Sequence record: NZ_CP099764.1
Direction: 5' to 3' (one strand)
DNA from: a plasmid
Length of the DNA stretch: 64,000 nt
In this document: piece after piece, positions 43,787 through 62,254 of the stretch
How the letters are laid out: each line of letters opens with the position of its first letter
How positions within the stretch are numbered: the first letter of the stretch is position 1
Translations under genes and position numbers: made by a program
Notes under the pieces: model-generated
Seen by the model: the letters and a program-made list of their open reading frames with translations, nothing else
Told to the model about the DNA's origin: nothing
Databases searched by the model: none

Positions 43787-44039
43787 GTCAGCGGCTTCTC
43801 AACTGGGCACAAGCCGGTAAAAAGTAGTCAACGACAAAACTTCAGGCCGAAAAATGAGGCTCCGGTTTCGCCGGAAACCGGACCTGCGTGGAGGGAAACC
43901 CGCAGATGATATGATATTTATCATTAATCGCATAATAAATCCTGGCCTGATATTTACAGGCAGAGAAATAAATCATTCGATATATGATTTTATCGTCATC
44001 AGCCATTAACCCCCCAGGAAGCGCGGTAATGACTCCAAC

Positions 44040-44429
44040 TTATTGATAGTGTTTTATGTTCAGATAATGCCCGATGACTTTGTCATGCAGCTCCACCGAT
44101 TTTGAGAACGACAGCGACTTCCGTCCCAGCCGTGCCAGGTGCTGCCTCAGATTCAGGTTATGCCGCTCAATTCGCTGCGTATATCGCTTGCTGATTACGT
44201 GCAGCTTTCCCTTCAGGCGGGATTCATACAGCGGCCAGCCATCCGTCATCCATATCACCACGTCAAAGGGTGACAGCAGGCTCATAAGACGCCCCAGCGT
44301 CGCCATAGTGCGTTCACCGAATACGTGCGCAACAACCGTCTTCCGGAGACTGTCATACGCGTAAAACAGCCAGCGCTGGCGCGACATAGCCCCACTGTTC
44401 GTCCATTTCCGCGCAGACGATGACGTCAC
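44040..44429 (-). CDS. insB: IS1 InsB' frame carrying an internal 11-bp deletion (N-terminal part frameshifted)
   Basis: reads [26 protein letters not shown]... where canonical InsB has ...[21 protein letters not shown]; the nucleotides ggggctaaatc are missing after tggggctatgtc. Confidence 0.75.
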
Positions 44430-44450
44430 TGCCCGGCTGTATGCGCGAGG

Positions 44451-44726
44451 TTACCGACTGCGGCCTGAGTTTTTTAAGTGACGTAAAATCGTGTTGAGGC
44501 CAACGCCCATAATGCGGGCAGTTACCCGGCATCCAACGCCATTCATGGCCATATCAATGATTTTCTGGTGCGTACCGGGTTGAGAAGCGGTGTAAGTGAA
44601 CTGCAGTTGCCATGTTTTACGGCAGTGAGAGCAGAGATAGCGCTGATGTCCGGCGGTGCTTTTGCCGTTACGCACCACCCCGTCAGTAGCTGAACAGGAG
44701 GGACAGCTGATAGAAACAGAAGCCAC
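44451..44726 (-). CDS. insA: IS1 InsA (91 aa)
   Basis: [91 protein letters not shown]. Confidence 0.95.
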
Positions 44727-44776
44727 TGGAGCACCTCAAAAACACCATCATACACTAAATCAGTAAGTTGGCAGCA

Positions 44777-45676
44777 TCACCGACATCTGTTATCACTTAA
44801 CCCATTACAAGCCCGCTGCCGCAGATATTCCCGTGGCGAGCGATAACCCAGCGCACTATGCGGATGCCATTCGTTATAATGCTCGAACGCCTCTGCAAGG
44901 TTCTTTGCTGCCGTTAACCCGTCTGGTTTGGGCATGATACTGATGTAGTCACGCTTTATCGTTTTCACGAAGCTCTCTGCTATTCCGTTACTCTCCGGAC
45001 TCCGCACCGCCGTGTTCTTCGGTTCAAGTCCCAACATCCGGGCGAACTGGCGTGTTTCATTAGCCCGGTAGCATGAACCATTATCCGTCAGCCACTCCAC
45101 TGGAGACGACGGAAGATCGTTGCCGAAGCGGCGTTCCACCGCTCCCAGCATGACGTCCTGTACTGTTTCACTGTTGAAGCCGCCGGTAGTGACCGCCCAG
45201 TGCAGTGCCTCACGATCACAGCAGTCCAGCGCGAACGTGACACGCAGTCTCTCTCCGTTATCACAGCAGAACTCGAACCCGTCAGAGCACCATCGCTGAT
45301 TGCTTTCTTTCACGGCCACTCTGCCTGTATGTGCCCGTTTCGATGGCGGTACAGCAGGTTTTCGCTCAAGCAACAGCGCATTCTGGCGCATGATCCGGTA
45401 AACACGTTTGGCATTGATCGCAGGCATACCATCAAGTTCTGCCTGTCTGCGAAGCAGCGCCCATACCCGACGATAACCATACGTGGGCAGCTCTCCGATA
45501 ACATGGTGTATACGGAGAAGCACATCCGTATCATCAGTGTGACGACTGCGGCGGCCATCCATCCAGTCATCGGTTCGTCTGAGAATGACGTGCAACTGCG
45601 CACGCGACACCCGGAGACAACGGCTGACTAAGCTTACTCCCCATCCCCGGGCAATAAGGGCGCGTGCGCTATCCAC
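44777..45676 (-). CDS. insD: IS2 OrfB (InsD) transposase; the C-terminal codons run into the IS1 terminus
   Basis: 299 aa DDE transposase; its stop codon lies inside the IS1 copy A end. Confidence 0.85.
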
Positions 45677-46090
45677 TTTTTTGCCCGTCCATATTCAACG
45701 GCTTCTTTGAGGAGTTCATTTTCCATCGTTTTCTTGCCGAGCAGGCGCTGGAGTTCTTTAATCTGCTTCATGGCGGCAGCAAGTTCAGAGGCAGGAACAA
45801 CCTGTTCTCCGGCGGCGACAGCAGTAAGACTTCCTTCCTGGTATTGCTTACGCCAGAGAAATAACTGGCTGGCTGCTACACCATGTTGCCGGGCAACGAG
45901 GGAGACCGTCATCCCCGGTTCAAAGCTCTGCTGAACAATTGCGATCTTTTCCTGTGTGGTACGCCGTCTGCGTTTCTCCGGCCCTAAGACATCAATCATC
46001 TGTTCTCCAATGACTAGTCTAAAAACTAGTATTAAGACTATCACTTATTTAAGTGATATTGGTTGTCTGGAGATTCAGGGGGCCAGTCTA
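44782..46090 (-). mobile_element. IS2 lacking about 22 bp of its right terminal inverted repeat (truncated by IS1 copy A)
   Basis: left end TAGACTGGCCCCCTGAATCTCCAGACAACC (reverse complement at 46090); the other side starts directly at gacatctgttatcacttaaccc (internal IRR sequence) abutting the IS1 terminus. Confidence 0.85.
45634..45999 (-). CDS. insC: IS2 OrfA (InsC), 121 aa
   Basis: [56 protein letters not shown]... Confidence 0.9.
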
Positions 46091-46280
46091 ACTTTTTGTT
46101 AGAATACTAATTCTTTTCTTGTATTTTTTTGAGGAAATGAGCACGGAACACGACATAATCTGTAGTCAGTAAAGAGTCTATCCTCCCTGACTACAGATTA
46201 TGTCGTGTATTATATGATATCAACTTGGCTGTCAGCGGCCATGTTGATATCAGCGTACCTTTGTTGTAAAGGAATACCGG

Positions 46281-48479
46281 TCAGAACAGCACAGAGTAGT
46301 TCAGACCAAAGGTTCGGCCCCTGCCTTTGTAGTCGTACAGTGACGCTGGGCCGTAACCCGGGCTGTAGTACAGTGGTGCACGCTGCCCCCAGACAGTGGT
46401 GTAGTCACGGTCGAAGAGGTTTTCAATGCTGAAGCTGAGTGTACCCACCGGAAGCTGATAACTGCCGAGCAGATCCACGGTGGTATAGCCATCGACCTTG
46501 TAGCCCTGCGCGTCGCTCACGTCAAAGGAGGTGGTGCTCTGCACGCGCAGACTCCACGGGTCCGGTGCCCAGCCAATGTAGGCTGTCGCTTTTGATGGGC
46601 TTGCTGTCTTCACATCGTATTTCTGCCAGGTACCGTTCACTTTCGACTCAGTTTTCAGCACGTTGAAGTTCACTCCGGTACTCCAGTCAGTATCAGGAAT
46701 CAGGTAGTCCACCGCACCTTCCACGCCGTAAATACGGCGTTTGTCGTCCACCACGCTGATGGTCAGATCTTTATTCGCCACCACGCTCTTATCAGAAATC
46801 GAATAGTAGGCCGCGATTTGGGTACGCAGATTATTGCCAGTAAAGCGCCAGCCCAGCTCATAAGAATCGACTTTCACGCCTTCCAGCTTGCTGTCGCTGA
46901 CGTTCACACTCTTTGTTAGAGGAAGATGGCCGTTCACTGCAGCACCATAGATGCCGCGACCATAGTATTTACCCGGGTCCGGCAGCTCCACGCCCTGGGA
47001 GAAGTTGAGCCATGCCTGCTGGCGTTCGGTGATGTGCATCAGCAGACCGGCGTTGAACAGGAAGTTGTCGTAATCGACTGAGCCGCCAGGAATGGCGTCG
47101 GCGGATGTAGCCTTCCCGGCGGCAATCTGCCGTTGCTGCGCGTAGCCGATGAAATCATCAATCTTGTTTTCAGTGTACTGATAGCGTACGCCACCGTTGA
47201 GGGTAAAGAGATTATTGATGTCATAGCCTGATTGCAGGAAGGCCGCCAGGTTGGTGATGTCATACGACGGATAGCGCCCGGTGGTGTAAATCTTCTTGTT
47301 GTTCAGCCCTCCGGAAGCGCTTGCCTGAGCCAGGTCGAAGAACATCTGGTTGGAGGTAAAGCGCTCATGATCAGCATCCAGCCCCCAGGTGATTTGCCAG
47401 CCGTCCATCGGTTTGCTGTTCAGAGTCAGTTTCATGCCGTACTGGTCGGTGTCCTGCTGTGACGAAGAGAAAGCCGTCACCTGTTTGTTCGCATTTACCG
47501 TCGGGAACGGGTAGAATCGCAACGACTCATCGCGGTAGTAAACCTGACCGACCAGCTCCTGTCCCAGAAAAGCGCTGTCAGAGTACTGCAGGCTGATCAA
47601 ATGCCGCTCAGTGCCGGGAATACGGTCGGAATTCAGCCCGTTACTGACGAATGGCGTGCTGGTCCCTCTGATGGCAGAGAAGCCTTTCCCGAGATTAAGC
47701 CCGTAATCGTCGTCGCCCTGGCTTTTATAGTACTGTGTGATCAACTGAAGCTGCCGGGATTCATCGATGTTCAGCGTACCAGTTCCCATGATGTCCAGCC
47801 GATCGGAGTACTGCAGGCCGGTCTGGGTGTTATCAAGCAAGGTGGCATCGCCGTTACCGTCAAACCAGCCGCCAAATTTCTGATATGCCACGGAAAGACG
47901 TCCGGAGATATGCTCATTTCCGCCGGAGACAGCTCCGGCAATGCGTTCATCGTGATCTTTACTGCTGCTAAAGCCACTTTTGGTGCCAGCCTCAAACTCC
48001 ATCATGGTTTCCGGCTGGCCTTTTTTGGTCACGATGTTGATCAGGCCACCGGTACTGCCGCCGCCGTACAGGGACGTCGCACCGGAGATCACTTCAATAT
48101 GGTCGATATTAAAAGGATCTATAGAGTCCAGTTGTCGGCTGTCGGTACGTGAAGAGTTGAGACGCACGCCGTCAACCAGCACGACCAGCGGGCGGCCACG
48201 CACATTCATACCGTAGTTGGTGCGGCTCCGGCTGCTGACGTCAAGGCCAGGGATCAGCTGAGCCAGTGCGTCTTTAAGCTCTTTGCCGCCCTGAATCTGC
48301 TGTTCCAGTTCGGCGTTTTCGATAACCCAGGTGGTTTGCGCCATCTCCGCTACGGTGCGATTGCTGCGGTTGGCAGACACCACGAACGTTTCATCATCGG
48401 TTTGTTGAGCGACTGCTGGCGCCATCATGGTAAGAAGCAGTGGGTTGAGAGCCCAAAGCGTATACTTTTTGCTTATCAT
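46281..48479 (-). CDS. iutA: IutA, TonB-dependent ferric-aerobactin outer-membrane receptor (732 aa)
   Basis: TonB box and plug/beta-barrel, C-terminal ...GLNYSVLF; follows iucD. Confidence 0.95.
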   Translation of the reverse strand: MISKKYTLWALNPLLLTMMAPAVAQQTDDETFVVSANRSNRTVAEMAQTTWVIENAELEQQIQGGKELKDALAQLIPGLDVSSRSRTNYGMNVRGRPLVVLVDGVRLNSSRTDSRQLDSIDPFNIDHIEVISGATSLYGGGSTGGLINIVTKKGQPETMMEFEAGTKSGFSSSKDHDERIAGAVSGGNEHISGRLSVAYQKFGGWFDGNGDATLLDNTQTGLQYSDRLDIMGTGTLNIDESRQLQLITQYYKSQGDDDYGLNLGKGFSAIRGTSTPFVSNGLNSDRIPGTERHLISLQYSDSAFLGQELVGQVYYRDESLRFYPFPTVNANKQVTAFSSSQQDTDQYGMKLTLNSKPMDGWQITWGLDADHERFTSNQMFFDLAQASASGGLNNKKIYTTGRYPSYDITNLAAFLQSGYDINNLFTLNGGVRYQYTENKIDDFIGYAQQRQIAAGKATSADAIPGGSVDYDNFLFNAGLLMHITERQQAWLNFSQGVELPDPGKYYGRGIYGAAVNGHLPLTKSVNVSDSKLEGVKVDSYELGWRFTGNNLRTQIAAYYSISDKSVVANKDLTISVVDDKRRIYGVEGAVDYLIPDTDWSTGVNFNVLKTESKVNGTWQKYDVKTASPSKATAYIGWAPDPWSLRVQSTTSFDVSDAQGYKVDGYTTVDLLGSYQLPVGTLSFSIENLFDRDYTTVWGQRAPLYYSPGYGPASLYDYKGRGRTFGLNYSVLF

Positions 48480-48563
48480 CATTATTCCTCCATACGGGCG
48501 GAAAAAATCAGCCCAAAGATGCTGTGTAGCGAGTTAAAGAAGCAGCCTCCGGCTGCGTTTTCC

Positions 48564-49841
48564 CTAGGTGCCGCTGCGCCACTGAATCAGGGCGGGCGGC
48601 ATACTGAGATCGAATAAATCACGTCCCATTACGCGATTAAGAATACGTGCAGATCTCCATGCCATCAGGCTGAGCTGGGGTTCGGCGATGCCATGGGTTT
48701 GCATACTGGCGTTGACCACGAAGATGTTGTTCTCTTTCGGGCCACTCCATTCCAGAGTGAAGTCATCACGCACTTTAAAGGTGTTCTTATCGTGCATGGT
48801 GATCAGGGGCATCAGTGAGGGAAGTATTTGTGGCAACGCAGAACGGTAACCTGTGGCGAAAATCACCACATCACTTTCCAGGCTCTCCCTGCCCTGATCC
48901 AGATGATGCTCCATCAGCAACTTCCAGCCAGGACCACTACTTTCCAGAGTTGTTACCGAGCGGCTGGGTAGCAGACGGATATTTCTTGGTTTTCTCAGAA
49001 CTTCAAAACGGTGGTACAACTCACGATAAATGGTCAGTAAAGAATCGGCAGTGATGCCATCCGATGTCATTTTCTGCTCATCCAGTAACTGATGGCGAAT
49101 ATCTTCCTCCAGTCCGGAGAAGCCTGAAATATATTCAGGTGTAAAATACTCATCAGCAAAAGCAGCCTCATCCAGTGCGTTAAAATTATTACGCCGGGAG
49201 ACCCAGTTTATTTCCGCCGCTTCTCCCCATTCCCCGCGTAATGCATTAAGGAACAGGTCTGCACCACTCTGTCCTCCACCAACCACGGTTATCCGTTTTC
49301 CACTAAGGTCCGGCCGACGAAGATTCATTTCACTGGCATGGAAACAGGATTGTGTCATATGCTTCACACAGGGTGGTAAATAAGGTTGTTTTCCTGTACC
49401 AAGGCAGATATTGCGGGCAAAATATTCTCCCTGGCTGGTTTGCACCAGAAACAATCGACGTTTTTTATCGAAATCAATGTTTTCAACGGTATGACTGAAA
49501 TACAGGTTATTCATATCTTCAGCAGCCCAGCGGAGGTAGTCAGAAAACTCTTCACGGGATACTGTACGTAGTCTGCTTGTAAGGAAGCGATAGAACTTTT
49601 TGTGCTTCACCAGATAGTTAACAAAACTGTAGGGATTTGTAGGTGCAACAGCACTGACCAGATCTTTCAGAAAGACGGTCTGCATATGACAATCCGGTAC
49701 CAGCATACCCGGATGCCAGGAAAAATGAGGATGTTCATCAAAGAAGAGACAGTCCAGTTCTTCGATCTGATGTGACAACGCAGCAATGCTGAGATTAAAT
49801 GGCCCTGTCCCTACACCAATAAAATCGACACTTTTTTTCAT
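48564..49841 (-). CDS. iucD: IucD, L-lysine N6-monooxygenase (425 aa)
   Basis: FAD/NADPH motifs GVGTGPFNLSIA and VVGGGQSGADLF. Confidence 0.95.
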   Translation of the reverse strand: MKKSVDFIGVGTGPFNLSIAALSHQIEELDCLFFDEHPHFSWHPGMLVPDCHMQTVFLKDLVSAVAPTNPYSFVNYLVKHKKFYRFLTSRLRTVSREEFSDYLRWAAEDMNNLYFSHTVENIDFDKKRRLFLVQTSQGEYFARNICLGTGKQPYLPPCVKHMTQSCFHASEMNLRRPDLSGKRITVVGGGQSGADLFLNALRGEWGEAAEINWVSRRNNFNALDEAAFADEYFTPEYISGFSGLEEDIRHQLLDEQKMTSDGITADSLLTIYRELYHRFEVLRKPRNIRLLPSRSVTTLESSGPGWKLLMEHHLDQGRESLESDVVIFATGYRSALPQILPSLMPLITMHDKNTFKVRDDFTLEWSGPKENNIFVVNASMQTHGIAEPQLSLMAWRSARILNRVMGRDLFDLSMPPALIQWRSGT

Positions 49842-51580
49842 GATTCATATTCCTGAGTTACCAGCCACAGCGGATTTTGCAGATCCTCAAGGTAATTCGG
49901 CAGCATGCGGCTGCCGCCATCCAGATCAGGCCAGGTCAGTTTTACCGGGTTCAGCACCACGCGAATGATTTGTGGCCTGAAAAGTGAGAAAAGCGCAAAA
50001 CGCTCTGACATTTGTGGATGTTTTTTCATGTAATCACTCAACACTGCTGCCAGCAGTTGATAAAATCGCCTTTCAGGTACGCCAAGACGAACCATCAGTG
50101 GCGAAATAAAACGCAGTACTGTCACGAAGTGACCCGTCTGCAAATCATGGATTAAGTAGTCCGCACTCAGGCGGGATGTAACATCACGAACCTCCTGAGG
50201 CAAAGAGTCCATTTCGGGGAACTCTTCTTTCACCAGTCGCATATCGCCCTGGAAGTCTTTCAGCAGAACACGCTGTGGAACCCCCTCTTTCATGGCGAGA
50301 GTTATATTTTGTCCATGTGCAATAAGCGCGACACCGTAGCGGCAAAGCAGGTGATACAGAGGAACCACGACCACCCGGAACAGTTGCGTAAGCCAGGTTT
50401 CAGCGTCCAGCCCGGAGCGGTCTATATATGCGCCTGCCAGCGGCTGATTGTTTTCGTCGCACTCCATCAGTGTTGCCATCAGAACCGGACTTTCATCCGG
50501 TTTCAGCCAGCGGCACGGATTCTCCCGCCAGATAACACCAAGCATTTCCTGGTAGCGATAGGGAGCCCGGGCAAGCGCGGCATAGCCTTCATGGGAGACA
50601 TAGCCTGCAGCCGGTTCACCAAGTATCACTGCGCCGCTTTGCACTAGGGTGGCGTCGGTCGCAAAAACCTGTTGTAGCCAGCGTGAAGCCAGTGGTCCGG
50701 CAGCGATGTATCTGCCAGGGATCCCCCGGTAGCATGAGGTGTTGTAGATGGTCAGCGGCAGCTTGATATCCAGCCCGCCCCGGCGACTGGCGTTGGTCAG
50801 GGTACGCAGCGACTGCTGGGCGAGCCACTGGTCGCCAAACTCGCCGAGAGACACCATCCTGCCTTCGGCAAAATCAGCGATGAAGTCGGTAGCGATTTTT
50901 TGCTGCCACTGCCACGGATGTACCGGCAGCGGCAGCCAGTTATGATCCAGTCCGTTTTCCTGCCAGACCTGACTGAAGCGGGCAAACTCCTGCGGATCCA
51001 TTGCGGCCGTCAACAACTGATGAATATCCATCTCGTTATCACAGCGCCAGATCATATGTTCACGTTTTACCGCCAGCCAGTGCAGTCTGAAGGTGTTGGC
51101 ATACTCTGGCGCATATCGTTCCAGCGCCTCTTTACCCCAGCCACGGCGACCTTTATTAAAAACGAATTTAGGATGACCGCTCAGCAGGCATTGCAGGCGG
51201 TCGGCATTAAGATTAATCAGGTCACTGGCGCTCAGCCCGCGACGGGCTTTCAGTAGTTGCAGGTCGCCCAGCAGCGTGGCATACAAATCCTGCATATGCT
51301 CAGCAACGGTTGCATCGCTCATTGACAGTACCTGCTTTAGCTGCATCAGCAGCGTCTGAGCCAGTACTGGCTCGTCCGCGCAGCGCAGAGTTTGAGCATC
51401 AATCCAGAGCCAGCCCCAGATACCACGTTCAGCGATGAAGCGCCATTGTGCTCCCGGCAGGTTAATGCAGTAGCGGTCATCGCCCTGAGATTCCGCGTGG
51501 AAAACCTGCTCATACTCCAGCTCAGACAACATTTTTGCCACCAGGCGGCGGTTGACCAAATCCCAGTCTTTGTGATTCAT
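49838..51580 (-). CDS. iucC: IucC, aerobactin synthase (580 aa)
   Basis: IucA/IucC family, 580 aa. Confidence 0.95.
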   Translation of the reverse strand: MNHKDWDLVNRRLVAKMLSELEYEQVFHAESQGDDRYCINLPGAQWRFIAERGIWGWLWIDAQTLRCADEPVLAQTLLMQLKQVLSMSDATVAEHMQDLYATLLGDLQLLKARRGLSASDLINLNADRLQCLLSGHPKFVFNKGRRGWGKEALERYAPEYANTFRLHWLAVKREHMIWRCDNEMDIHQLLTAAMDPQEFARFSQVWQENGLDHNWLPLPVHPWQWQQKIATDFIADFAEGRMVSLGEFGDQWLAQQSLRTLTNASRRGGLDIKLPLTIYNTSCYRGIPGRYIAAGPLASRWLQQVFATDATLVQSGAVILGEPAAGYVSHEGYAALARAPYRYQEMLGVIWRENPCRWLKPDESPVLMATLMECDENNQPLAGAYIDRSGLDAETWLTQLFRVVVVPLYHLLCRYGVALIAHGQNITLAMKEGVPQRVLLKDFQGDMRLVKEEFPEMDSLPQEVRDVTSRLSADYLIHDLQTGHFVTVLRFISPLMVRLGVPERRFYQLLAAVLSDYMKKHPQMSERFALFSLFRPQIIRVVLNPVKLTWPDLDGGSRMLPNYLEDLQNPLWLVTQEYES

Positions 51581-52527
51581 TACAGACCGACCTCCGTGAA
51601 GAAGTGATGACGATCCGCCATCACCATGCGCGAGCGTTTATGTGGGAAGTCGAACTCTTTAATTGTCCGGTATCCCGCAGGCTCAAGATGGCGGAACAGG
51701 CGCTGGTTATCGGTGCGTGGCTCCAGTACTGTGCGCTGCGTACGTGGCTCATTCAGCAGCAGGTAATGTGTCACCCCGCGCAGCCAGCTTTGCACATAGT
51801 GGGCTCCGCGCCATTGCTGTTCACCAACCAGCAGATGCAGGCCACGGTCAAAGGGCTGCCACGAATAGTGGCGACCAATGCGGTCTTCCGCCGCCCAGTA
51901 GATTTCGAAATAACTGAACGGCCGATCGTCGAAACAACCAATCAGCGGGAATGCATGTTTACTGGTGAGCTGGCGTTCCAGATAGGCGATCTGTACCTCC
52001 AGTGAGCCACTTTGCTCCCAGAAATACTCAACGCGCGGATCGTTCATCCAGCGAGTGAAACGTTCTGCATCAGAAACGGGATCGGCAATGCGGAAACTCA
52101 GCATCCTGCGAATGCGTGGATCGTAACGACGATAAACTTCACCCTGCGGACGGGGGGGGCGCTGCGGGAAATAAATCTCACGCTCTGCATCAAAAACCAT
52201 TTCACCGGAGGCCCGGTTTGCCGGAGAACTCAGCCATAACGGTAACTGCCAGAAAGCGGAACGATGGATAATGTCGCTTTGTACCTGTCCGAAAAGCGTC
52301 AGCGCCTGTGGCTCCTCACACCATTCGGACCAGGGAAGAACCACTGCTGAAAGTTGTGGTGCGGCGATAAATATCTGATCCAGCGCGTCGCACAGCCACC
52401 CTGTTGGCAGCTCCCCGGGCCAGTGCAACACCGCGCTATTGTCCAGCCCCCAGCCAAGATTCAGAGGCTTGTCGAGTTTTTCACAGCGCAGTCCATATCC
52501 GCTGTGAACAATGTTTGCCCCAGACAT
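51580..52527 (-). CDS. iucB: IucB, N6-hydroxylysine O-acetyltransferase (315 aa)
   Basis: 315 aa, position in the operon. Confidence 0.95.
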   Translation of the reverse strand: MSGANIVHSGYGLRCEKLDKPLNLGWGLDNSAVLHWPGELPTGWLCDALDQIFIAAPQLSAVVLPWSEWCEEPQALTLFGQVQSDIIHRSAFWQLPLWLSSPANRASGEMVFDAEREIYFPQRPPRPQGEVYRRYDPRIRRMLSFRIADPVSDAERFTRWMNDPRVEYFWEQSGSLEVQIAYLERQLTSKHAFPLIGCFDDRPFSYFEIYWAAEDRIGRHYSWQPFDRGLHLLVGEQQWRGAHYVQSWLRGVTHYLLLNEPRTQRTVLEPRTDNQRLFRHLEPAGYRTIKEFDFPHKRSRMVMADRHHFFTEVGL

Positions 52528-54252
52528 TCAGACCTCCTGAGCCTGCAGCGGGTTAGCGAAATCAAAATAGATCACCGAAGGGTCAACGATGGTGTTCTCG
52601 TTATGATCGTTCAGATAACAGAAAAAGTTACCTTTTACGTTCCAGTACGGACTTTCCAGAACATAGTTGAGACAGGTTTTATGAGTCACCTGGTCACGCA
52701 CTTCAGCCAGCAATGTTCGTACACGAGCCATCAGATTCGCTTCGCTGTCCAGCCCGGCAGCACCCAGCGCAGCAGTTACGGCAAAAGTGGAGTTAACCAG
52801 CAGGTAATAAGGGAAATAGCGCAGCAACTGCTCACGGGTGAAAATATTTTCCGCCTGCGCCTCGTCAATGGTATCGAGCCACTCTGTCGCGTGAGGCATA
52901 AACGCGCTGCCCTGGCAGTCACGGTAAATAAATCCGACCGGCAGATCCCCAAGCATCTGCACAAGAATATTTTGCTGATGCGCCAGCAGCACCAGGCCGT
53001 AATCCGCTTCAGCCGTAAACAGAGGCTTCAGCACCTGCTGACAGTAAGCATCGACCCATGCGTGGGCGGCCTGTTGCACAGTGATACCGAGGCGATCGCT
53101 CAGGCGTTTTACCGCCGAAACCAGCAGCGAATCACCGCCATCCGGTGCGGCCTGAGTCAGGGAAACCAGAACGTTGGTCTGGCTTTGCGGCTGCTCCAGC
53201 AGCAGGTTTTCACGCAGGGAAAACAAACTTTCCTGCATGATGTTGCCGTTAAGATCGCGCAGCCCGGCCCAGCCGTCCTCCTGCATTACCCGGAAAGTAG
53301 GGAAGCGGGCCTGTAGCATCTGCCAGCCGTCGGTTTGCGCCAGACGTGCCAGGCGCATTCCTCGCTCCACCTCTTTCACAGACAGAGTACGGACGGAGTT
53401 GGTCAGCCGAACGCTCAGGGAGAACTTGATCATATCGCGGCTGGTAGCACAGTAGAGGGAGCGGGAAGAGGTGGTCGGCAGCCACGACGTGCCGGCCTCG
53501 CCTAAGTCTCTGATAAGTCCTTTAGCAAAAAGTGCCTGGCACCACACTTGCTGCAAAAGATATTCTCCCTGCCACGGGTGCAGCGGGAACAGCCATTGAT
53601 TGTCACTTAATTCGTTGAGTAACTGGGGCGCATTTTCTGCGGCAAATCGCGTCAACCGCTGTTGAAGGTTAAGATGCAGACTTTCACCAGCGATTTGCGT
53701 TTTATCCACCGAAAACCACCGCAGCGGGAAGTGAGGTGCCATGTCAGGCAGGTATCGTTCAGCTTCCTGGCGGTTAAACGGTTCATGAGACTTAGGTGCA
53801 GGGTGGAAAGCGTGTCCTGTCAGCAGTGCCTGCTCAGCCTCGCCAAAATTCAACGCTTTTTCACGCAGGATGGCCCAGTCATGGCGGGCATCAATTGTCT
53901 GTTGCGTATGGGCGTAGCTTTCCAGCACGCGTTGGTGGAAAGTTTCGCAGAGGGGAACTGGCAGAAAAAGTTGATGCCGGAGCTTATCAATAATAAGCCG
54001 GGAGAGAGTGGTAAAGTCGACAGGATAACTGCCTGATGCCGTGACCAGATGAGCAGGAAATGCAAAGCGGTGATGCTGGGTTGGGGAGAAATAAGCCACT
54101 CTGAAATGGAGCGACTTCTGTTCGTCCAGCGGGATAATCAATTCGTCTGGCGGGTATTCCGCCAGTTGCCAGTCTTTGGTTTCACGAATCAAGGCATTCA
54201 GGAAGCACTGCGCAGCCACATCTGTGGCGGATTTTTCAGAGGGCAGGATCAT
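52528..54252 (-). CDS. iucA: IucA, N2-citryl-N6-acetyl-N6-hydroxylysine synthase (574 aa from MILPSEKSATD)
   Basis: IucA/IucC family; the 574-aa start is placed 10 bp downstream of the Fur box. Confidence 0.95.
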   Translation of the reverse strand: MILPSEKSATDVAAQCFLNALIRETKDWQLAEYPPDELIIPLDEQKSLHFRVAYFSPTQHHRFAFPAHLVTASGSYPVDFTTLSRLIIDKLRHQLFLPVPLCETFHQRVLESYAHTQQTIDARHDWAILREKALNFGEAEQALLTGHAFHPAPKSHEPFNRQEAERYLPDMAPHFPLRWFSVDKTQIAGESLHLNLQQRLTRFAAENAPQLLNELSDNQWLFPLHPWQGEYLLQQVWCQALFAKGLIRDLGEAGTSWLPTTSSRSLYCATSRDMIKFSLSVRLTNSVRTLSVKEVERGMRLARLAQTDGWQMLQARFPTFRVMQEDGWAGLRDLNGNIMQESLFSLRENLLLEQPQSQTNVLVSLTQAAPDGGDSLLVSAVKRLSDRLGITVQQAAHAWVDAYCQQVLKPLFTAEADYGLVLLAHQQNILVQMLGDLPVGFIYRDCQGSAFMPHATEWLDTIDEAQAENIFTREQLLRYFPYYLLVNSTFAVTAALGAAGLDSEANLMARVRTLLAEVRDQVTHKTCLNYVLESPYWNVKGNFFCYLNDHNENTIVDPSVIYFDFANPLQAQEV

Positions 54253-54387: not shown

Positions 54388-55581
54388 ATGTCATCTAAGA
54401 TCGAAGATACGCCCCAAAAAACCCTGTCCTGCTGGCCACTGGCGTTCAGTGCCGGTCTTCTCGGTATCGGACAGAACGGTCTGCTGGTTGTACTCCCTGT
54501 TCTGGTCATACAGACAAATCTGAGTCTGTCTGTATGGGCTGCCCTGCTGATGCTGGGCTCAATGCTGTTTCTGCCATCTTCCCCATGGTGGGGAAAGCAA
54601 ATTTCCCTTACTGGCAGTAAGACTGTGGTGCTGTGGGCTCTGGGAGGATATGGCGTAAGCTTTACCCTGCTTGGGCTGGGAAGCGTGCTGATGGCTACCG
54701 GTGCCGTAACAACAGCGGTGGGGTTGGGAATATTAATCATCGCCCGGATCGTCTACGGTCTGACCGTGTCAGCAATGGTGCCAGCCTGTCAGGTCTGGGC
54801 ATTGCAGAGAGCGGGAGAAGGGAATCGCATGGCCGCTCTGGCAACCATCAGCTCCGGCCTGAGCTGCGGCAGGCTATTCGGGCCGCTGTGCGCGGCGGCA
54901 ATGTTGGTCATTCACCCTCTGGCGCCAGTGTGGATGCTGATGGCAGCTCCGGTGTGGGCTGTGGTGATGCTTCTGCGGTTGCCCGGCACACCACCACAGC
55001 CCACACCGGAGCGCAAGAGCGTCAGCCTGAAGCGGGATTGCCTGCCTTATCTGCTTTGCGCAATGTTACTGGCTGCGGCAATGAGCATGATGCAGCTTGG
55101 ACTTTCGCCAGCCCTTACTCGCCAGTTCGATACTGATACCACCACTATTAGCCAACAGGTGGCGTGGTTGTTGGGGCTGTCCGCAATAGCTGCGCTTATC
55201 GCGCAGTTCGTGGTACTCCGTCCACAGCGCCTGACTCCAGTGGCTCTGCTCCTGAGTGCCGGGGTGTTGATGAGTAGTGGTCTGGCTATCATGCTCACTG
55301 AACAGCTATGGTTGTTTTACCTGGGCTGTGCAGTGCTGTCATTTGGGGCCGCTCTGGCAACACCCGCTTATCAACTTTTACTGAATGATAAGCTGGCCGA
55401 CGGCGCAGGCGCGGGCTGGCTTGCGGCCAGTCACACACTTGGCTATGGGCTGTGCGCATTGTTGGTGCCACTGGCGTCGAAAACAGGTGTCTCAATCGCG
55501 CTGATTGTGACGGCATTATTTGCCGCTGTATTATTTACCATAGTGTCTGCATGTATTTGGCATTACCGTACAATCAAGTAA
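54388..55581 (+). CDS. shiF: ShiF, MFS transporter divergent from iucA (397 aa)
   Basis: 12-TM MFS profile; conserved partner of the aerobactin locus. Confidence 0.85.
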   Translation: MSSKIEDTPQKTLSCWPLAFSAGLLGIGQNGLLVVLPVLVIQTNLSLSVWAALLMLGSMLFLPSSPWWGKQISLTGSKTVVLWALGGYGVSFTLLGLGSVLMATGAVTTAVGLGILIIARIVYGLTVSAMVPACQVWALQRAGEGNRMAALATISSGLSCGRLFGPLCAAAMLVIHPLAPVWMLMAAPVWAVVMLLRLPGTPPQPTPERKSVSLKRDCLPYLLCAMLLAAAMSMMQLGLSPALTRQFDTDTTTISQQVAWLLGLSAIAALIAQFVVLRPQRLTPVALLLSAGVLMSSGLAIMLTEQLWLFYLGCAVLSFGAALATPAYQLLLNDKLADGAGAGWLAASHTLGYGLCALLVPLASKTGVSIALIVTALFAAVLFTIVSACIWHYRTIK

Positions 55582-55960: not shown

Positions 55961-56341
55961 TCATGCGAAAAGTATGGTTATGATAAAAAAGCCTAAAGCT
56001 GTCATGATGAGGGAGCCAATGACGTGAACAAGTACAGACGTCAAAGCCCATATATAATTTCCCGCCTGGAGTAATGCGAATACTTCAACAGAAAATGTAG
56101 AGAAAGTACTCAGACCTCCACAAAGTCCCGTTGTTATCATTAATTTCCAAAAAGGATCAAGGTGTGGTTGTCGTAAAAAGTACGCCAACGCAGTACCAAT
56201 AATTAACCCGGCAAGGAGGTTCACCACCAGTGTACCTGGAGGTAGATTTGGAAAAAGACTGTTAAAGCGTGTGGACAGTAACCAGCGCAGAGTACATCCA
56301 ACAGAACCGCCGATAATGACGGCAAAAAGTGATTTAATCAT
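55961..56341 (-). CDS. crcB: CrcB/FluC fluoride channel (126 aa)
   Basis: four-TM CrcB family, GGxxR-type motifs (VGGSVGCTLRW, LCGGLSTFSTFS). Confidence 0.9.
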   Translation of the reverse strand: MIKSLFAVIIGGSVGCTLRWLLSTRFNSLFPNLPPGTLVVNLLAGLIIGTALAYFLRQPHLDPFWKLMITTGLCGGLSTFSTFSVEVFALLQAGNYIWALTSVLVHVIGSLIMTALGFFIITILFA

Positions 56342-56412
56342 GTACCCCTCATAAAATAATTTTTTATCGTAACAATATCAGAATATGTTCTCATTTGACT
56401 GATATTGTTAAT

Positions 56413-56685
56413 TTATATCCTTTGACTACATGCAAGATAAGGGAAGGTTCTATTTATTGACATTAATACCCTCGACAATTGCTGAGCAGAAGCCCCCACG
56501 ACAAGTGACAGAATGACAACATCTACAGTGGGGAGCGTTTTATCGATGAACAAGCAACCAAGAAGTAACACGGCATAGGTGACGACAATGCCAGTAAGCA
56601 TAGAAATAACAAAAACGTGAGCTTTCATCATTCCTCCAGAATAACCCCGACGTGTAAGCCTGGGGGATTGGCACAATAATGTCAT
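56413..56685 (-). CDS. small membrane protein (90 aa) between the eno fragment and crcB
   Basis: two predicted TM helices; translationally coupled to the eno fragment. Confidence 0.4.
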
Positions 56686-57116
56686 TTAAAGGCAGACTTT
56701 CCGGCAAATTGCGCCGATGAACCCAGTTCATCCTCAATTCTCATAAGCTGGTTATATTTTTCAATACGCTCACCCCGGCATGGAGCTCCCGTTTTGAGAT
56801 GACCTGCGCGCATTGCAACTGTCATATCGGCGATAAAGCTGTCCACTGTCTCACCACTGCGGTGTGAGATAAAGGTGCCCCAGTTGTTGTCATGGCAAAG
56901 TTGTACCGCATCAAAGGTTTCACTCAGGGAACCAATCTGGTTGAGTTTAATCAATGCTGAATTGGCAAGGTTTTCGTCAATGCCGCGCTGAATATACTTT
57001 ACGTTGGTCACAAACAGATCGTCGCCAACCAATTCTATCTGCTCTCCCAATGCACCATGCAGGATTTTCCATCCAGCCCAGTCATCTTCAGCTACCGTTA
57101 AGGGCAGGAAGATCAA
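56682..57116 (-). pseudogene. eno: C-terminal fragment of enolase (144 aa; N-terminal about 290 aa absent)
   Basis: ...SHRSGETEDSFIADLAV-like motif [48 protein letters not shown] is the enolase C-terminus. Confidence 0.8.
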
Positions 57117-57355
57117 CTAGGTGCTCTGGGGCTGGTGACCAATGCGGTTGTGCTGTGAAACACACTTTACATGCAGGAGGCGTTGTCACATCTTCGCAAA
57201 TCGGGAGAAACTCCTGAGGAGTAGCATCCGGCAAGATTATCGCTGCTGATACATAGCCATATAAATATGCTGGGGCATTATACGTCTTCGTTACCGGAAG
57301 ATATTCTTAAGGGTGAGTTAAGATCATTAAACTTCAATACAAACAATTAATTAAA

Positions 57356-57395
57356 CTCTTAGCGTGGTTTTTTACATCACTGGCCCTCGCCCCCC
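57356..57395 (-). repeat. Tn3-family-like terminal inverted repeat, right copy
   Basis: reverse complement ggggggcgagggccagtgatgtaaaaaaccacgctaagag; the inner ACGCTAAG motif is like the Tn3-family IRs. Confidence 0.6.
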
Positions 57396-57583
57396 AATTT
57401 TCTCTATGTTTTGCCACTACTTCCCTCATTTTACTGCGCTGTTTGCTATCCCTGAGAATCGACATTACTTGCTATCCAGTCCGCAGCAACTCTCTGGCAA
57501 CAAAACTTATCAGAATCATAAGTCTGTGCATTATTCGTTCAAGCGCATCGCCAATAAGCGGATGTTGCTGGCCGAGTGTTCTG

Positions 57584-58441
57584 CTAATCGGATGATAACA
57601 AATCCCGTGGTTCGGCATTTTCCTTTGTGCGTGCGTTGATGCTGGTAACGGTAAACGTCATGATGAACATGACCGCGAATAAGACAACAATTGTCGGAGC
57701 TGGCGCGCTGTCGATAAAAAAGGACAGCCAGACACCAGTCATTGAGACCAATATCGATATGCCAGTCGCCAGCAGGAGCGCAATATGAAAGCGTTGTGTC
57801 AGGAGTACCGCAATGGCACCAGGCGCAATGAGAAGAGAAATAGAGAGAATGATACCTACCGCTTTCAGCGTCGCCACAATGGTCAGGGAGACCATGCACA
57901 GCAGCCCATAATGCAGCCATCTCGTATGCAAACCGCTTGCCTGCGCCTGTTGATAATCAAAGCTGAACAGCAAAAAATCCCGCCATTTTACGCTAATAAC
58001 AAGTGTAACCAGTCCGGCAATAATCACCGTCTGGATTATATCGCCGATGGTTATCCCGAGCATGTCGCCGAAAAGAATATGATCAAGATGTACGTCTGGT
58101 TTGACTGCAATATACAAGATCAGACCTGCGGCAAACATGCCAGAAAAAACAATCCCCATCACTGTATCTTGCTTGATTCGGCTGTTGTCTTTCAGGTATC
58201 CCGTCGCCACCGCACAGAATACTCCGGCGACGAATGCCCCTGTAGCCAGAGGTAACCCCAGAATCCAGGCAAGCACGATGCCAGGAAAAACCGCATGACT
58301 CATCGCGTCACCCATCAGTGCCCAACTTTTCAGGACCAGAAAGACCGACAGCAGCGCACAGGGTATGGAAACTACCAGTGAAATCAGCAGTGCGTGACTC
58401 ATAAAGGTGAACTGCAGTGGCTCCAGTAATAATGCCATCAT
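57584..58441 (-). CDS. sitD: SitD, Mn/Fe ABC transporter permease (285 aa)
   Basis: ABC-3 permease, paralogue of sitC. Confidence 0.9.
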   Translation of the reverse strand: MMALLLEPLQFTFMSHALLISLVVSIPCALLSVFLVLKSWALMGDAMSHAVFPGIVLAWILGLPLATGAFVAGVFCAVATGYLKDNSRIKQDTVMGIVFSGMFAAGLILYIAVKPDVHLDHILFGDMLGITIGDIIQTVIIAGLVTLVISVKWRDFLLFSFDYQQAQASGLHTRWLHYGLLCMVSLTIVATLKAVGIILSISLLIAPGAIAVLLTQRFHIALLLATGISILVSMTGVWLSFFIDSAPAPTIVVLFAVMFIMTFTVTSINARTKENAEPRDLLSSD

Positions 58442-59295
58442 GAGCGATCCTCCAGCGCTTTATGCGCACGCCGACGATTTGCCAAAAGCCCATGGGTGGG
58501 CGCAAAGACAAATGCTAAAAGAAACAGCAGTGTCTGCGCCACCACGATGATTCCACCTGTCGCGCCGTCCAGAAAGTAACTGACCCACGCGCCGAGGAAA
58601 CTGGTCACACTGCCAATAGTTACAGCAATCATGAGCAGGCGGGGAAAACGATCGGTTAACAACCATGCTGTTGCACCGGGAGTCACCACCAGACAGATCA
58701 CCAGAAAGGCACCAACCGTTTGCAGCGCCGCAACGGTCGAAACCGACAGCAGGGTGAAGAAGAGGATTTTTAATCTGCCCGGATGCAATCCAATAGCACG
58801 GGCGTGATTCTCGTCGAAAAAGGTCACCATAAGATCTTTCCATTTGAAAAAAAGCACGATGATCGAGAGAATGCCAATGATAGTGAGTTGCAGGATATCC
58901 GCCGGATCGATTGCCAGAATATTGCCCAGGACGATGGTCTGAATGTTCACGGATGTCGGGTTCAATGACACCATAAACAGCCCCAGGCCAAAAAAGGACG
59001 AGAAGATCAGGCCGATGATGGCATCTTCTTTTAAGCGAGTGAGTTGGTTAAGAAACAGCATGCTGCCCGCTGCCAGTCCGCCGGAAAAGAAGGCTCCCAG
59101 AGAAAACGGAAGCCCCAGCATATATGCCCCCGCAACACCCGGGACAATAGAGTGCGACAGCGCATCGCCAATCAGCGACCAGCCTTTTAGCATCAGATAG
59201 CATGACAGGAAAGCGCAGAGACCGCCGACCATCGCCGAGACCCACATCGCATTGAGCATATATTCATAGCTGAAGGGTTCCAGTAGCACGTTCAT
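58438..59295 (-). CDS. sitC: SitC, Mn/Fe ABC transporter permease (285 aa)
   Basis: ABC-3 permease. Confidence 0.9.
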
Positions 59296-60119
59296 CTTTC
59301 TTCCCTCTGCACCGCTGACGGTCGATGTGCCACAAAAGGGCGTTCATCGTCAGTAATAATGCTTTCTTCCGAGCCGTTAAGTGTGACATGGCGCAGTACG
59401 CCGCTAAAAGCCAGCTCCAGGTTCTCGGCTGTAAAAGTGGTGTCTGTCGGCCCGCTTGCCAGGACGGTGCCTTTGACCATGACCGTATAATCGCAAAATG
59501 TCGTGACGGATCCGAGATTGTGCGTTGAGACAAGCATCGTTTTGCCTTCCGCGCGTAACTCCCTCAACAGGCTGATGATTTTCGCTTCGGTTTTCACATC
59601 AACGCCGGTAAAAGGTTCATCCAGCAGGATCACATCACCCTGCTGTGCAATCGCTCTCGCCAGAAAGACGCGTTTCTTTTGTCCACCGGAAAGCTCGCCG
59701 ATTTGTCGATGGCGAAAATCCACCATATCGACACGTTCCAGCGCATCGGTGACAATCTGACGATCCCTCTTTTTGGCGATACGCAACATACCCATATGCC
59801 CATAGCGGCCCATCATCACCACATCTTCCACCAGTACAGGAAATGACCAGTCAACCTCTTCTGACTGAGGGACGTAGGCAACCAGGTTTTTCTGTAGCGC
59901 CTGTCGTGTGGGAATACCCAGAACAGATATCTTCCCGCTGGTCAGACGCACAAATCCCATAATCGCTTTAAACAACGTCGATTTTCCGGAACCGTTTACC
60001 CCAACCAGAGCGGCAATAGATCCGCCTGGTACTGTGAAGGATGCATCGCGCAGTGCTGTGTGCCCGTTACGCCAGGTGACAGTAACATCATTAACGACAA
60101 TGCCTGCAGATTGCATCAT
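59292..60119 (-). CDS. sitB: SitB, ABC transporter ATP-binding protein (275 aa)
   Basis: Walker [10 protein letters not shown], signature LSGGQKKR. Confidence 0.95.
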
Positions 60120-61033
60120 TATTTCTCCCTTTTTCCGGCTTTAATTCCCTGTACCAGCGTACTGGTAGTAACCTTCAGAAGGTCGATATACGTAGGTACC
60201 GGGCCGTTTTCTGTGCTCAGGGAATCGACATAGAGCACACCACCGTAGTGCGCGCCGGTTTCACGCGCAACCTGACGCGCTGGTTTATCGGAAATCGTAC
60301 TCTCGCTAAAGACTGCCGGGATATGATTTTTCTTAACTATATCAACAACCTTACGTACCTGCTGCGGTGTTCCTTGTTGATCGGCATTAATCGGCCACAG
60401 ATAAAGCTCTTTTAGCCCCAAATCGCGTGCGAGATAAGAAAAAGCCCCTTCACTGGTGACCATCCATCGCTGATTCTCAGGGAGTTCCGCAATCTGCTTA
60501 CGCAGGGGGGCAAGGGTTTGGGTAATCTTGGCTTTATAAGTATCGGCATTACGTTGGTAGGTTTGTGCATTTATCGGATCGTATTTTATAAACGCATCAC
60601 GAATATTATCGACGTAAATCAGAGCATTATCTGGCGACATCCAGGCATGGGGGTTAGGTTTGCCCTCATAGGGCCCTTCGGTGATCCCTACTGGCGTCAC
60701 ACCCGAAGAGACAATTACTTCTGGAACCCCATTGAGATGCTGGTAAAAGCGTTGGAACCACAATTCCAGATTCATACCATTGGCGAGAATCAGTTGTGCC
60801 CCCTGCGCACGTTTAATATCGCCAGGGGTAGGCTGATACTCATGAATTTCTGCACCAGGCTTGGTTATGGATGAGACTTCTGCAGCATCTCCAGCCACGT
60901 TTTTGGCCATATCTGCGATGATGGTAAAAGTTGTAATGACCTTGAATTTTTCAGCTGCACTCGCCTGAAATGCTATCGAGCAGGTGAGGACTAGGCACCC
61001 CAAGAGCATGGTTACTTTTTTTATTGAGAGCAT
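60119..61033 (-). CDS. sitA: SitA, periplasmic Mn/Fe-binding protein (304 aa)
   Basis: ZnuA/TroA-family SBP with signal peptide. Confidence 0.95.
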
Positions 61034-61039
61034 GATTTA

Positions 61040-61140
61040 GTACCTATAGTGAGCAAAATTAGAATAAACATAGCAACTACTATGTTTTATAGCAGAAGCT
61101 ATAAAATGTAAATAATTATCATTAGCGATTATAAGATCCC
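61040..61140 (-). promoter_or_regulatory. sitABCD promoter with an MntR box and a Fur-like box
   Basis: aaacatagcaactactatgtttta palindrome (61066-61089), the MntR consensus AAACATAGC-N-GCTATGTTT; the AT-rich aatgataattattt is Fur-like. Confidence 0.7.
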
Positions 61141-61388
61141 AACACAGGGATTAGGTTATTTCCTGCTGACGATGTGGTATTGAGGATAAAAGTTGGGCAG
61201 CGCTTTGGCTTTAAAATGAACTTGTTCAGGACGATTGGTAATGGCAAAGCAAAAATAATGTAGGTTATTGGCAAGTTCTCTAGGACGCAGGAGAGCATGA
61301 AAAACCCAGGGGCAGTCACTAAATGAAGGGATCGGTGATGCTGCCAACTTACTGATTTAGTGTATGATGGTGTTTTTGAGGTGCTCCA

Positions 61389-61664
61389 GTGGCTTCTGTT
61401 TCTATCAGCTGTCCCTCCTGTTCAGCTACTGACGGGGTGGTGCGTAACGGCAAAAGCACCGCCGGACATCAGCGCTATCTCTGCTCTCACTGCCGTAAAA
61501 CATGGCAACTGCAGTTCACTTACACCGCTTCTCAACCCGGTACGCACCAGAAAATCATTGATATGGCCATGAATGGCGTTGGATGCCGGGTAACTGCCCG
61601 CATTATGGGCGTTGGCCTCAACACGATTTTACGTCACTTAAAAAACTCAGGCCGCAGTCGGTAA
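61389..61664 (+). CDS. insA: IS1 InsA
   Basis: identical to the copy A InsA. Confidence 0.95.
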
Positions 61665-61685
61665 CCTCGCGCATACAGCCGGGCA

Positions 61686-62075
61686 GTGACGTCATCGTCT
61701 GCGCGGAAATGGACGAACAGTGGGGCTATGTCGCGCCAGCGCTGGCTGTTTTACGCGTATGACAGTCTCCGGAAGACGGTTGTTGCGCACGTATTCGGTG
61801 AACGCACTATGGCGACGCTGGGGCGTCTTATGAGCCTGCTGTCACCCTTTGACGTGGTGATATGGATGACGGATGGCTGGCCGCTGTATGAATCCCGCCT
61901 GAAGGGAAAGCTGCACGTAATCAGCAAGCGATATACGCAGCGAATTGAGCGGCATAACCTGAATCTGAGGCAGCACCTGGCACGGCTGGGACGGAAGTCG
62001 CTGTCGTTCTCAAAATCGGTGGAGCTGCATGACAAAGTCATCGGGCATTATCTGAACATAAAACACTATCAATAA
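61686..62075 (+). CDS. insB: IS1 InsB' frame carrying the 11-bp deletion
   Basis: same [22 protein letters not shown] junction as copy A. Confidence 0.75.
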
Positions 62076-62254
62076 GTTGGAGTCATTACCTGCTTTTTCG
62101 GTTGAAAAGAAATTGATTGAATTACTGGAAAAACAATCTGGTCTCCATACGTCTGTGGATTGCAGTACTCCCCTTACAGAGCAGAGTCTGTCGAGAAATG
62201 ACGGTGAAGACCAGACCAGAAGAAACGCTGAAAATATGTTCGGAGATGACTGAA

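Follow-up and report, generated by a model that had tools for sequence, protein, structure and literature searches.

The stretch analysed here, 64,000 nt of a plasmid (sequence record NZ_CP099764.1) referred to in its full length as the window, contains the well-known aerobactin and Sit block of F-type virulence plasmids (colicin V- or ColV-like, IncFIA/FIB), bounded on either side by a copy of the insertion sequence (IS) IS1. The left copy lies at 44025..44781 on the minus strand and the right one at 61334..62090 on the plus strand, with the aerobactin genes (iutA and iucDCBA), a transporter gene, crcB and sitDCBA between them. Both copies have lost the same 11 bp of the transposase gene, and the question is how two elements some 16.5 kb apart came to share this lesion. 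The explanation that we consider very probable as a whole is that of a known block with two old, inverted IS1 insertions, in which the deletion (allele del-A) would have originated in the left copy and then been passed by gene conversion to the right one.

Two identical IS1 copies with the same lesion

A repeat search finds a single long inverted repeat in the window, the arms of which (44025-44783 and 61332-62090, 759 nt each) are 100% complementary and 16548 nt apart. Each arm exceeds IS1 by 2 nt of flanking bases, a match expected by chance about once in 16. IS1 proper is 757 bp long in each copy, with no base difference between the two, and both copies have their right terminal inverted repeats (IRR, at 44025 and 62090) facing outward and their left ones (IRL, at 44781 and 61334) facing inward. 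An earlier note, made from the letters of the window alone, had placed the module between two inverted IS1 copies at 44025-62090; this proved correct, and the same structure is present verbatim in annotated public records. In the RefSeq record of plasmid pFAM21845_1, whose sequence is the same over this region, both copies are already labelled ‘IS1 family transposase, frameshifted’.

The reference for the comparison was IS1A of Escherichia coli K-12 MG1655, an annotated mobile element of 768 bp (NC_000913.3, 19796-20563). Relative to it, both window copies carry the substitutions C258T and A262T, giving an Ala to Val change in InsA, and are without positions 398-408 (i.e., TCGGGGCTAAA, equally writable as GGGGCTAAATC on account of a 3-nt TCG ambiguity). 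Of the retained positions 755/757 match IS1A, and the terminal inverted repeats of about 23 bp (IRL GGTGATGCTGCCAACTTACTGAT and its IRR counterpart) are the same as those of IS1A in both copies. The alignment confirms the length of 757 bp and the loss of 11 bp within insB' that the earlier note had claimed for both copies, and settles the two doubts that it had raised itself: the canonical sequence that it had assumed was right, as K-12 IS1A does have these 11 nt, and the copies differ nowhere else (757/757 identical).

In the left copy insA occupies 44451-44726 (minus strand), the remnant insB' open reading frame (ORF) 44040-44429 (minus strand), and the deletion junction lies between 44384 and 44385. 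The corresponding features of the right copy, all on the plus strand, are insA at 61389-61664, the A6C frameshift motif at 61638-61646 and the remnant insB' ORF at 61686-62075, with the junction between 61730 and 61731. On translation, insA is intact (91 amino acids), and the A6C signal for programmed -1 frameshifting (TTAAAAAAC, IS1 positions 305-313) is unchanged. The -1 frameshift product InsAB', on the other hand, terminates 9 codons past the deletion (...MDEQWGYV and 9 out-of-frame residues), while the C-terminal part, InsB', is now in the frame of insA as a separate ORF of 129 codons starting with V/M. The NCBIfam IS1 transposase profile NF033558 is matched by insA at its positions 1-81 and by the remnant ORF at 104-199, positions 82-103 being lost, and the N-terminal zinc-binding domain of InsA is recognised by NF050000 (2.1e-10). 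Neither copy thus has the continuous insB' frame of a full InsAB' transposase. The claim that the N- and C-terminal parts of InsAB' are out of frame is borne out by translation and profile match alike, and the peptide strings given in support of it are reproduced exactly. InsAB' is the IS1 transposase and carries the DDE catalytic motif (PMC12903888), so the predicted protein, cut short after the deletion, should not be catalytic.

Old junctions and the frequency of the deleted allele

The left copy is flanked by GGAAGCGC and GACATCTG and the right one by GAAGGGATC and TGCTTTTTC, with no match in either inversion state, and the outermost flanks of the whole unit (AGGAAGCGC on the left, TGCTTTTTC on the right) form no target duplication. 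Read in the orientation of the element, the IRL of the left copy adjoins an IS2 remnant and its IRR GCGCTTCCTGGG, whilst the right copy has AATGAAGGGATC at its IRL and TGCTTTTTCGGT at its IRR. Target duplications of 8-9 bp were sought in all four flank pairings (each copy, the whole unit and the post-inversion swaps) and none was found, so that the duplications which might have been expected outside 44025 and 62090 are absent. As no flank pairing matches, the junctions have been remodelled and keep no record of a recent insertion.

Both junctions are widely distributed. With queries of 160 nt (100 nt of outer flank and 60 nt of IS1 end), the left junction is found in 664 plasmids of PLSDB and the right one in 1055. 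The state of the IS1 copy at these places was read with synthetic queries, in which the outer flank was joined to the 56-nt deletion junction, under an E-value limit that shut out canonical IS1. A deleted copy stands at the left junction in 205 PLSDB plasmids (31% of those with this junction) and at the right junction in 38, namely 31 with the exact window allele, del-A, and 7 with another one. Nearly all of these 31 right-junction plasmids (29) hold a second deleted junction elsewhere in the record.

Without the flank, the 56-nt junction query at the default E-value lets canonical IS1 in, as two short pieces joined, and the counts at >=99% (372 and 267) are upper bounds only; clean counts were therefore taken at E<=1e-12. 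IS1 junctions with an 11-bp deletion then number 288 places in 228 PLSDB plasmids, and 432 places (143 chromosomal and 289 on plasmids) in 281 of the 5426 complete E. coli genomes, with a median of 1 and a maximum of 9 deleted copies per genome. IS1 as such occupies about 75000 places in 4971 of these 5426 genomes. The database search for the 757-bp variant advocated in the earlier note thus finds it at the left junction and in chromosomes, where the 143 places include any 11-bp deletion. Of some 210 plasmids with del-A, 205 carry it at the left junction, and this near-complete association fits a single origin of the allele there, followed by inheritance.

These figures bear on the possibility that the block owes its present form to transposition, either because a defective IS1 was mobilised in trans to a second site or because the whole unit moved as a composite transposon with two defective ends. 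IS1-flanked aerobactin DNA has been reported to be transposable (de Lorenzo 1988, as cited in PMC4707298), and copies of the 757-bp allele are found between target duplications at new sites, as described below. However, no 8-9 bp duplication surrounds either copy or the unit in either inversion state, the junctions agree base for base with those in the 664 and 1055 plasmids, where the IS1 is mostly canonical, and re-insertion at the very same base pair is implausible, all of which makes this origin extremely unlikely. No second location of the 18-kb unit with a flanking duplication turned up, although no systematic search for relocated units was made, and we see no sign of the unit moving as a composite transposon; the rearrangement that the records do show is an inversion of the cargo between its IS1 copies. 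The idea that the two copies derive from one another accordingly stands in so far as they are related via each other, but not as self-copying of a defective IS1 into a second position, given that both sites are old and shared and the right one is mostly canonical.

The left junction is also present in plasmids without the aerobactin block. In p45407_1 (NZ_CP041393.1, ~19050-20950), the gajB junction has a del-A copy directly adjoined by another IS1, which is divergent and intact, and beyond this lies other cargo (an FTR1/ATP-binding cassette (ABC) iron-transport cluster and macrolide resistance genes). The del-A IS1 therefore persists in plasmids that lack the block.

Concerted evolution of the flanking copies

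Close relatives of the window differ in the state of the two copies, which can be written as the bases at IS1 positions 258/262, the presence (del) or absence (wt) of the deletion, and the bases at 444/486. The window and pFAM21845_1 have TT-del-TT on both sides and contain IS2, as does pSH163_120, in which the cargo is inverted. In p4_2_1.1, without IS2, the left copy is CA-del-TT and the right one an intact element of 768 bp (CA-wt-GG), whilst pB17EC0231-1, also without IS2, has CA-del-TT on both sides. Finally, the plasmid of 2009C-3133 has a canonical left copy (CA-wt-GT) next to a different outer flank, a TT-del-TT right copy, and two insertions of the IS3 family in its cargo. The IS1 copies are thus alike within a plasmid and unlike between plasmids, which is the signature of concerted evolution.

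The canonical right IS1 of p4_2_1.1 and the right copy of the window occupy one and the same insertion point, to the base pair. In addition, the 15243-nt cargo of the double-deletion plasmid pB17EC0231-1 equals that of the single-deletion p4_2_1.1, and the two have in common 5 single nucleotide polymorphisms (SNPs) that set them apart from the window. Since a double- and a single-deletion plasmid share their cargo in this way, the pair must have been homogenised at least twice. Recombination between the copies is directly visible: in pSH163_120 (NC_019122.1, Salmonella Heidelberg, 1698-19762) the outer flanks are unchanged and the 16.5-kb cargo between them is inverted in full, and in 79 PLSDB plasmids the left outer (gajB-side) flank is joined via IS1, mostly of 768 bp, to the sitA-side flank. 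A reciprocal crossover, however, would only relocate a deletion and never duplicate it, and the double state therefore needs a non-reciprocal transfer, i.e., gene conversion. The most likely route for such a conversion is repair of the heteroduplex formed during the same recombination between IS1 copies.

The right copy of the window lacks the G444 and G486 of the canonical right copy, and has T258 and T262 as in the left copy. As these linked SNPs were homogenised along with the deletion, the window pair is best explained by copying. Across the records sampled, del-A occurs on a CA background at 258/262 in most plasmids, on CT in five chromosomal copies, and on TT in the window lineage and in one chromosomal copy.

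Consensus polishing is notorious for corrupting IS copies, and it was finished records that were examined here, not reads, so that two truly different copies could in principle have been made identical by collapsed repeat reads. Such an artefact would have had to strike many times, as the double-deletion state occurs in 31 independent records of varied date, host and laboratory, among them 2012-era Salmonella records. The two copies are resolved as different in many assemblies of close relatives, and two distinct double haplotypes exist. We accordingly attach hardly any probability to an assembly or polishing origin of the identity.

A deletion hotspot with two alleles

The canonical insB' sequence at the deletion site reads GGGGCTATGTC GGGGCTAAATC G, that is, a tandem quasi-repeat of two 11-bp units with two mismatches. 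In del-A, the allele of the window, the first unit is kept (GGGGCTATGTCGCGCC) and the microhomology at the junction is 3 nt. In another allele, del-B, it is the second unit that remains (GGGGCTAAATCGCGCC), and judging from the repeat it would be the product expected of slippage on the 7-nt repeat GGGGCTA. Plasmid pVH1-2-KPC of Klebsiella pneumoniae (NZ_CP027802.1, ~18700-19460) has del-B in its right copy, on a CA...GG background, and del-A in its left copy, so that its two flanking copies were inactivated independently. The same right-junction del-B is found in six other plasmids. Exact del-B occurs in 8 PLSDB and 6 E. coli records, including an O104:H4 pAA plasmid and the chromosome of FAM21845. 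Its places include NC_018666.1 (50631-50686) and NZ_CP017220.1 (308346-308401), and it is found on three E. coli chromosomes in all. About 12 O104:H4 pAA plasmids have a one-mismatch variant of del-B.

The existence of a second, independent 11-bp allele at the same repeat means that an identical 11-bp gap alone is no proof of common descent. The earlier argument from identical lesion to derivation of the copies from one another therefore survives as to their relatedness, which the linked SNPs uphold, but not as an argument from the deletion alone.

It may then be asked if the two window copies lost the same 11 bp separately, at a slippage hotspot. The deleted segment is indeed one unit of a tandem quasi-repeat, and pVH1-2-KPC and the six plasmids like it show that a right copy with GG at 444/486 can acquire a deletion of its own. 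Nonetheless, the right copy of the window was homogenised at all linked sites (G444 and G486 gone, T258 and T262 shared) and not in the deletion alone; the microhomology behind del-A is merely 3 nt; the occurrence of del-A at one left junction in 205 of about 210 plasmids suits a single origin; and a deletion of this kind, of either allele, affects only 432 of the ~75000 IS1 places in complete E. coli genomes. Independent recurrence is for these reasons a very unlikely account of the window pair. Copying remains the better one: with both sites old (in 664 and 1055 plasmids, respectively) and the right one mostly canonical, the shared lesion is best explained by gene conversion between resident elements.

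The defective element at chromosomal sites

The del-A element is surrounded by perfect target duplications of 8-9 bp at four different chromosomal sites: in a GmrSD gene (CGTAAACTC, 9 bp), in espX1 (CCGGAAATA, 9 bp, recorded as two loci, L007 and L010), in a porin gene (GCGTCAAC, 8 bp) and in the yoaB-yoaC spacer (CAAATTAA, 8 bp). The copy in wbdC has no target duplication. The insertion junction in GmrSD occurs in 1 of the 5426 complete E. coli genomes, and the element there is 100% identical to the TT-del allele on the plasmid of the same strain. On this identity, the simplest reading is that the GmrSD insertion was mobilised from the plasmid by the InsAB' of another IS1. Experiments have demonstrated that InsAB' can work in trans on IS1 copies that are themselves immobile, though more weakly than in cis (PMC12903888). 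The chromosomal copy in espX1 was also considered as a case of insertion at the very site of K-12 IS1A, in which event it would have proved conversion a second time; this was rejected, as the flanks differ.

From its sequence, then, the 757-bp element would move only if another source provided transposase in trans, or through homologous recombination. The earlier note had taken this view of the IS1-flanked module, and we agree with it for the element, as InsAB' is destroyed and copies are nevertheless found at new sites with target duplications.

Cargo, flanks and plasmid context

Of the module's genes and neighbours, the one next to the left IS1 is a copy of IS2 (44782..46090, minus strand, 1309 bp), intact at its 46090 end and cut at the other exactly at the IRL of IS1. 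We take full-length IS2 to be 1331 bp, in which case the terminal 22 bp are missing at the IS1-side end. The 280-bp spacer between iutA and IS1 of the relative p4_2_1.1 is absent from the window. The joint loss of the IS2 end and of this spacer, starting exactly at the IS1 IRL, looks like an adjacent deletion of the IS1 type, which would seem to have left IS2 one-ended and immobile.

Next come iutA (46281-48482), iucD (48564-49841), iucC (49838-51580), iucB (51580-52527) and iucA (52528-54252), all ORFs on the minus strand with the RefSeq/AMRFinder names of the identical plasmid. Although iucD is an unbroken ORF of 425 codons, it is labelled ‘frameshifted’ by RefSeq (Prokaryotic Genome Annotation Pipeline) in three related plasmids; this may be an annotation artefact and not a real aerobactin defect, the reference model being probably longer at one end. 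They are followed by a gene at 54388..55581 (plus strand) that RefSeq calls ‘MFS transporter’ (major facilitator superfamily) and that has no NCBIfam match, by the fluoride exporter gene crcB at 55961..56341 (minus strand; NCBIfam NF010792, 3.7e-52), and by the sitDCBA genes for an iron/manganese ABC transporter at 57584..61033 (minus strand). The gene content previously proposed for the module is hence borne out for iutA, iucDCBA, crcB and the sit genes by ORFs and RefSeq names, whilst ‘shiF’ as a name for the transporter gene is unconfirmed. Between crcB and sitD, at 56682..57350, lie fragments of a truncated enolase gene (eno') and of a truncated Tn3-family transposase, which are RefSeq pseudogenes on the identical plasmid (coordinates converted), and which, as scars, suggest that it was earlier activity of transposons that brought the aerobactin and sit genes together.

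The left outer flank (43925..44024) is downstream of gajB, and the right one (62091..62190) adjoins a truncated pseudogene resembling umuC/dinB. Directly to the left of the left IS1 stands a Gabija anti-phage pair, gajA at 41214-42779 (PADLOC GajA, 6.5e-102; RefSeq ‘ATP-dependent nuclease’) and gajB at 42764-43786 (PADLOC GajB, 1.9e-47; RefSeq ‘helicase UvrD’). Besides this pair, the backbone has an F-type transfer region, a leading region, sopAB, repE, ccdAB and vapBC, and near-identical plasmids are typed IncFIA/IncFIB/IncFIC. With iucABCD-iutA and sitABCD on an IncF backbone, the region is of the ColV type; no cva genes (i.e., the colicin V operon cvaABC, cvi) were seen among the annotated parts inspected, which leave out some 33 kb of the reference plasmid.

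The segment 43000-63000 matches four public plasmids at 100% (pFAM21845_1 of E. coli, CP088805.1 and two Salmonella plasmids), and at least 80% of it is covered by 725 further PLSDB plasmids. The rest of the window is 99.95% identical to pFAM21845_1, with small indels upstream of the module. Two other repeat structures lie outside it. An array of 43-bp tandem repeats at 33928-34271 adjoins sopB and is, by analogy with F plasmids, probably the partition site sopC. Three dispersed direct repeats of about 640 bp (17722-18358, 24498-25134 and 27826-28459), 87-98% identical in part, are found among small hypothetical ORFs of the leading region.

Discussion

Taken together, the observations suggest the following history. 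At an early date, two elements of the IS1A type would have entered as inverted insertions whose IRR ends face outward, and their junctions would then have been inherited by hundreds of plasmids. The gajB-side copy would later have lost one unit of the 11-bp quasi-repeat (GGGGCTATGTC followed by GGGGCTAAATC), possibly by slippage, giving rise to del-A, with insA, the frameshift signal and the terminal repeats left in place. Recombination between the inverted copies would flip the 16.5-kb cargo, and repair of the heteroduplex could copy the allele of one IS1 onto the other; in the lineage of the window, the right copy would in this way have taken on the full sequence of the left one, with its deletion and linked SNPs. 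Such 757-bp elements would be non-autonomous, i.e., moved by the InsAB' of another IS1 or rearranged by homologous recombination of the RecA type.

Several points weigh against this history or limit its reach. The direction and mechanism of the copying are deduced from seven related plasmids and database counts, and not from a full phylogeny. Outside the double-deletion plasmids, TT at 258/262 turned up in just one sit-side copy and one chromosomal copy; it could stem from a point mutation that conversion then spread, or a third IS1 could have been the donor in a conversion. The deletion site is a hotspot, as del-B testifies, and some of the shared deletions elsewhere may be independent. Repeat collapse or polishing during assembly could homogenise IS copies in single records. 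Lastly, the chromosomal copies could, formally at least, have come about by insertion of an intact IS1 and later conversion.

The retention of insA invites a further reading, compatible with the history of conversion given above. Copies that make only the InsA repressor (together with a truncated InsAB' that keeps the DNA-binding part) could be favoured by selection for damping IS1 in trans and thereby protecting the virulence block. InsA represses transcription of insAB' (PMC12903888), and in every deleted copy examined insA, the promoter region and both ends are untouched. The frequency of 31% at the left junction, and the plasmid group in which both flanking copies are inactivated by two different deletions, would also be in keeping with such self-restraint. 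Hitch-hiking on successful plasmid clones, combined with a mutational hotspot, explains that frequency equally well, however; most plasmids have kept canonical copies; and inversion and adjacent deletion still happened in the deleted lineages. We consequently give selected self-restraint very little credence. The stronger form of this idea, in which the insB' quasi-repeat would be a built-in recurrent off-switch and the positively selected InsA-only copies would spread from copy to copy by gene conversion, is likewise improbable, though not negligible. Selection for InsA-only copies is the most interesting reading that is left, and none of the data require it. Gene conversion of a deletion that arose on the left accounts for the window pair without it.

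Much of the anatomy is not new. The module of iuc/iut and sitABCD flanked by inverted IS1, without target duplications, is already published (PMC4707298, which cites Perez-Casal & Crosa 1984 and de Lorenzo et al.), and inversion of the sit-iuc block between ColV plasmids was noted in the paper on pAPEC-1 (PMC2626276). In the literature searched we found no description of the 11-bp IS1 deletion allele, which is a weak negative given the thin coverage of the IS1 papers of the 1980s-90s, and no account of a single origin of del-A, of its transfer to the partner copy, of del-B or of mobilisation of the defective element in trans. These points at the level of alleles are incremental, and the understanding of IS1 or of ColV-type plasmids is unchanged by them. 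Their practical value is modest: the state of IS1 (canonical, del-A or del-B), the orientation of the cargo and the presence of IS2 would together allow cheap structural typing of aerobactin/Sit plasmids, which are very common in E. coli, Salmonella and Klebsiella. The suggestion that the deletion is a useful lineage marker holds in that it can be used, but the marker is homoplastic, the double deletion having come about, or been restored by homogenisation, on two occasions or more; such homoplasy is a product of gene conversion and inversion between the copies, and the marker should thus be read with care. Apart from this, the block offers a natural example of concerted evolution in an IS, of a defective IS apparently moved in trans, and of a small deletion hotspot in IS1.

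Compared with known systems, the window copies share with IS1A (IS1 family, 768 bp) the terminal repeats, the insA ORF (but for one Ala to Val change) and the A6C -1 motif, and depart from it in the missing positions 398-408, the truncated InsAB' and the lack of a target duplication. The region of pColV-K30 (compared by description), pEC302/04, pAPEC-1 and pAPEC-O2-ColV likewise have two inverted IS1 around iucABCD-iutA and sitABCD, in either orientation and with no target duplication (PMC4707298, PMC2626276). The window differs from these ColV-type blocks in the truncated IS2 between iutA and the left IS1, and in the deletion of both copies, a state found at the right junction in only 31 of 1055 PLSDB plasmids. 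Composite transposons of the Tn9 type resemble it in that an IS1 whose outer terminal repeat is intact stands on either side of the cargo, but the window copies are inverted instead of direct, encode no transposase and are without a flanking duplication. Like non-autonomous elements of the miniature inverted-repeat transposable element type, the window allele has kept both ends, lacks a transposase of its own and has turned up, with 8-9 bp duplications, at several new sites; unlike them, it falls little short of full length, at 757 of 768 bp, retains the coding sequence for InsA and has a low copy number. Concerted evolution by gene conversion is known from IS copies and ribosomal RNA operons. 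The block shows the same identity within and difference between replicons as such repeated genes, and the same demonstrable recombination between repeats, with the peculiarity that only two copies are involved and that the allele spreading between them is one of loss of function.

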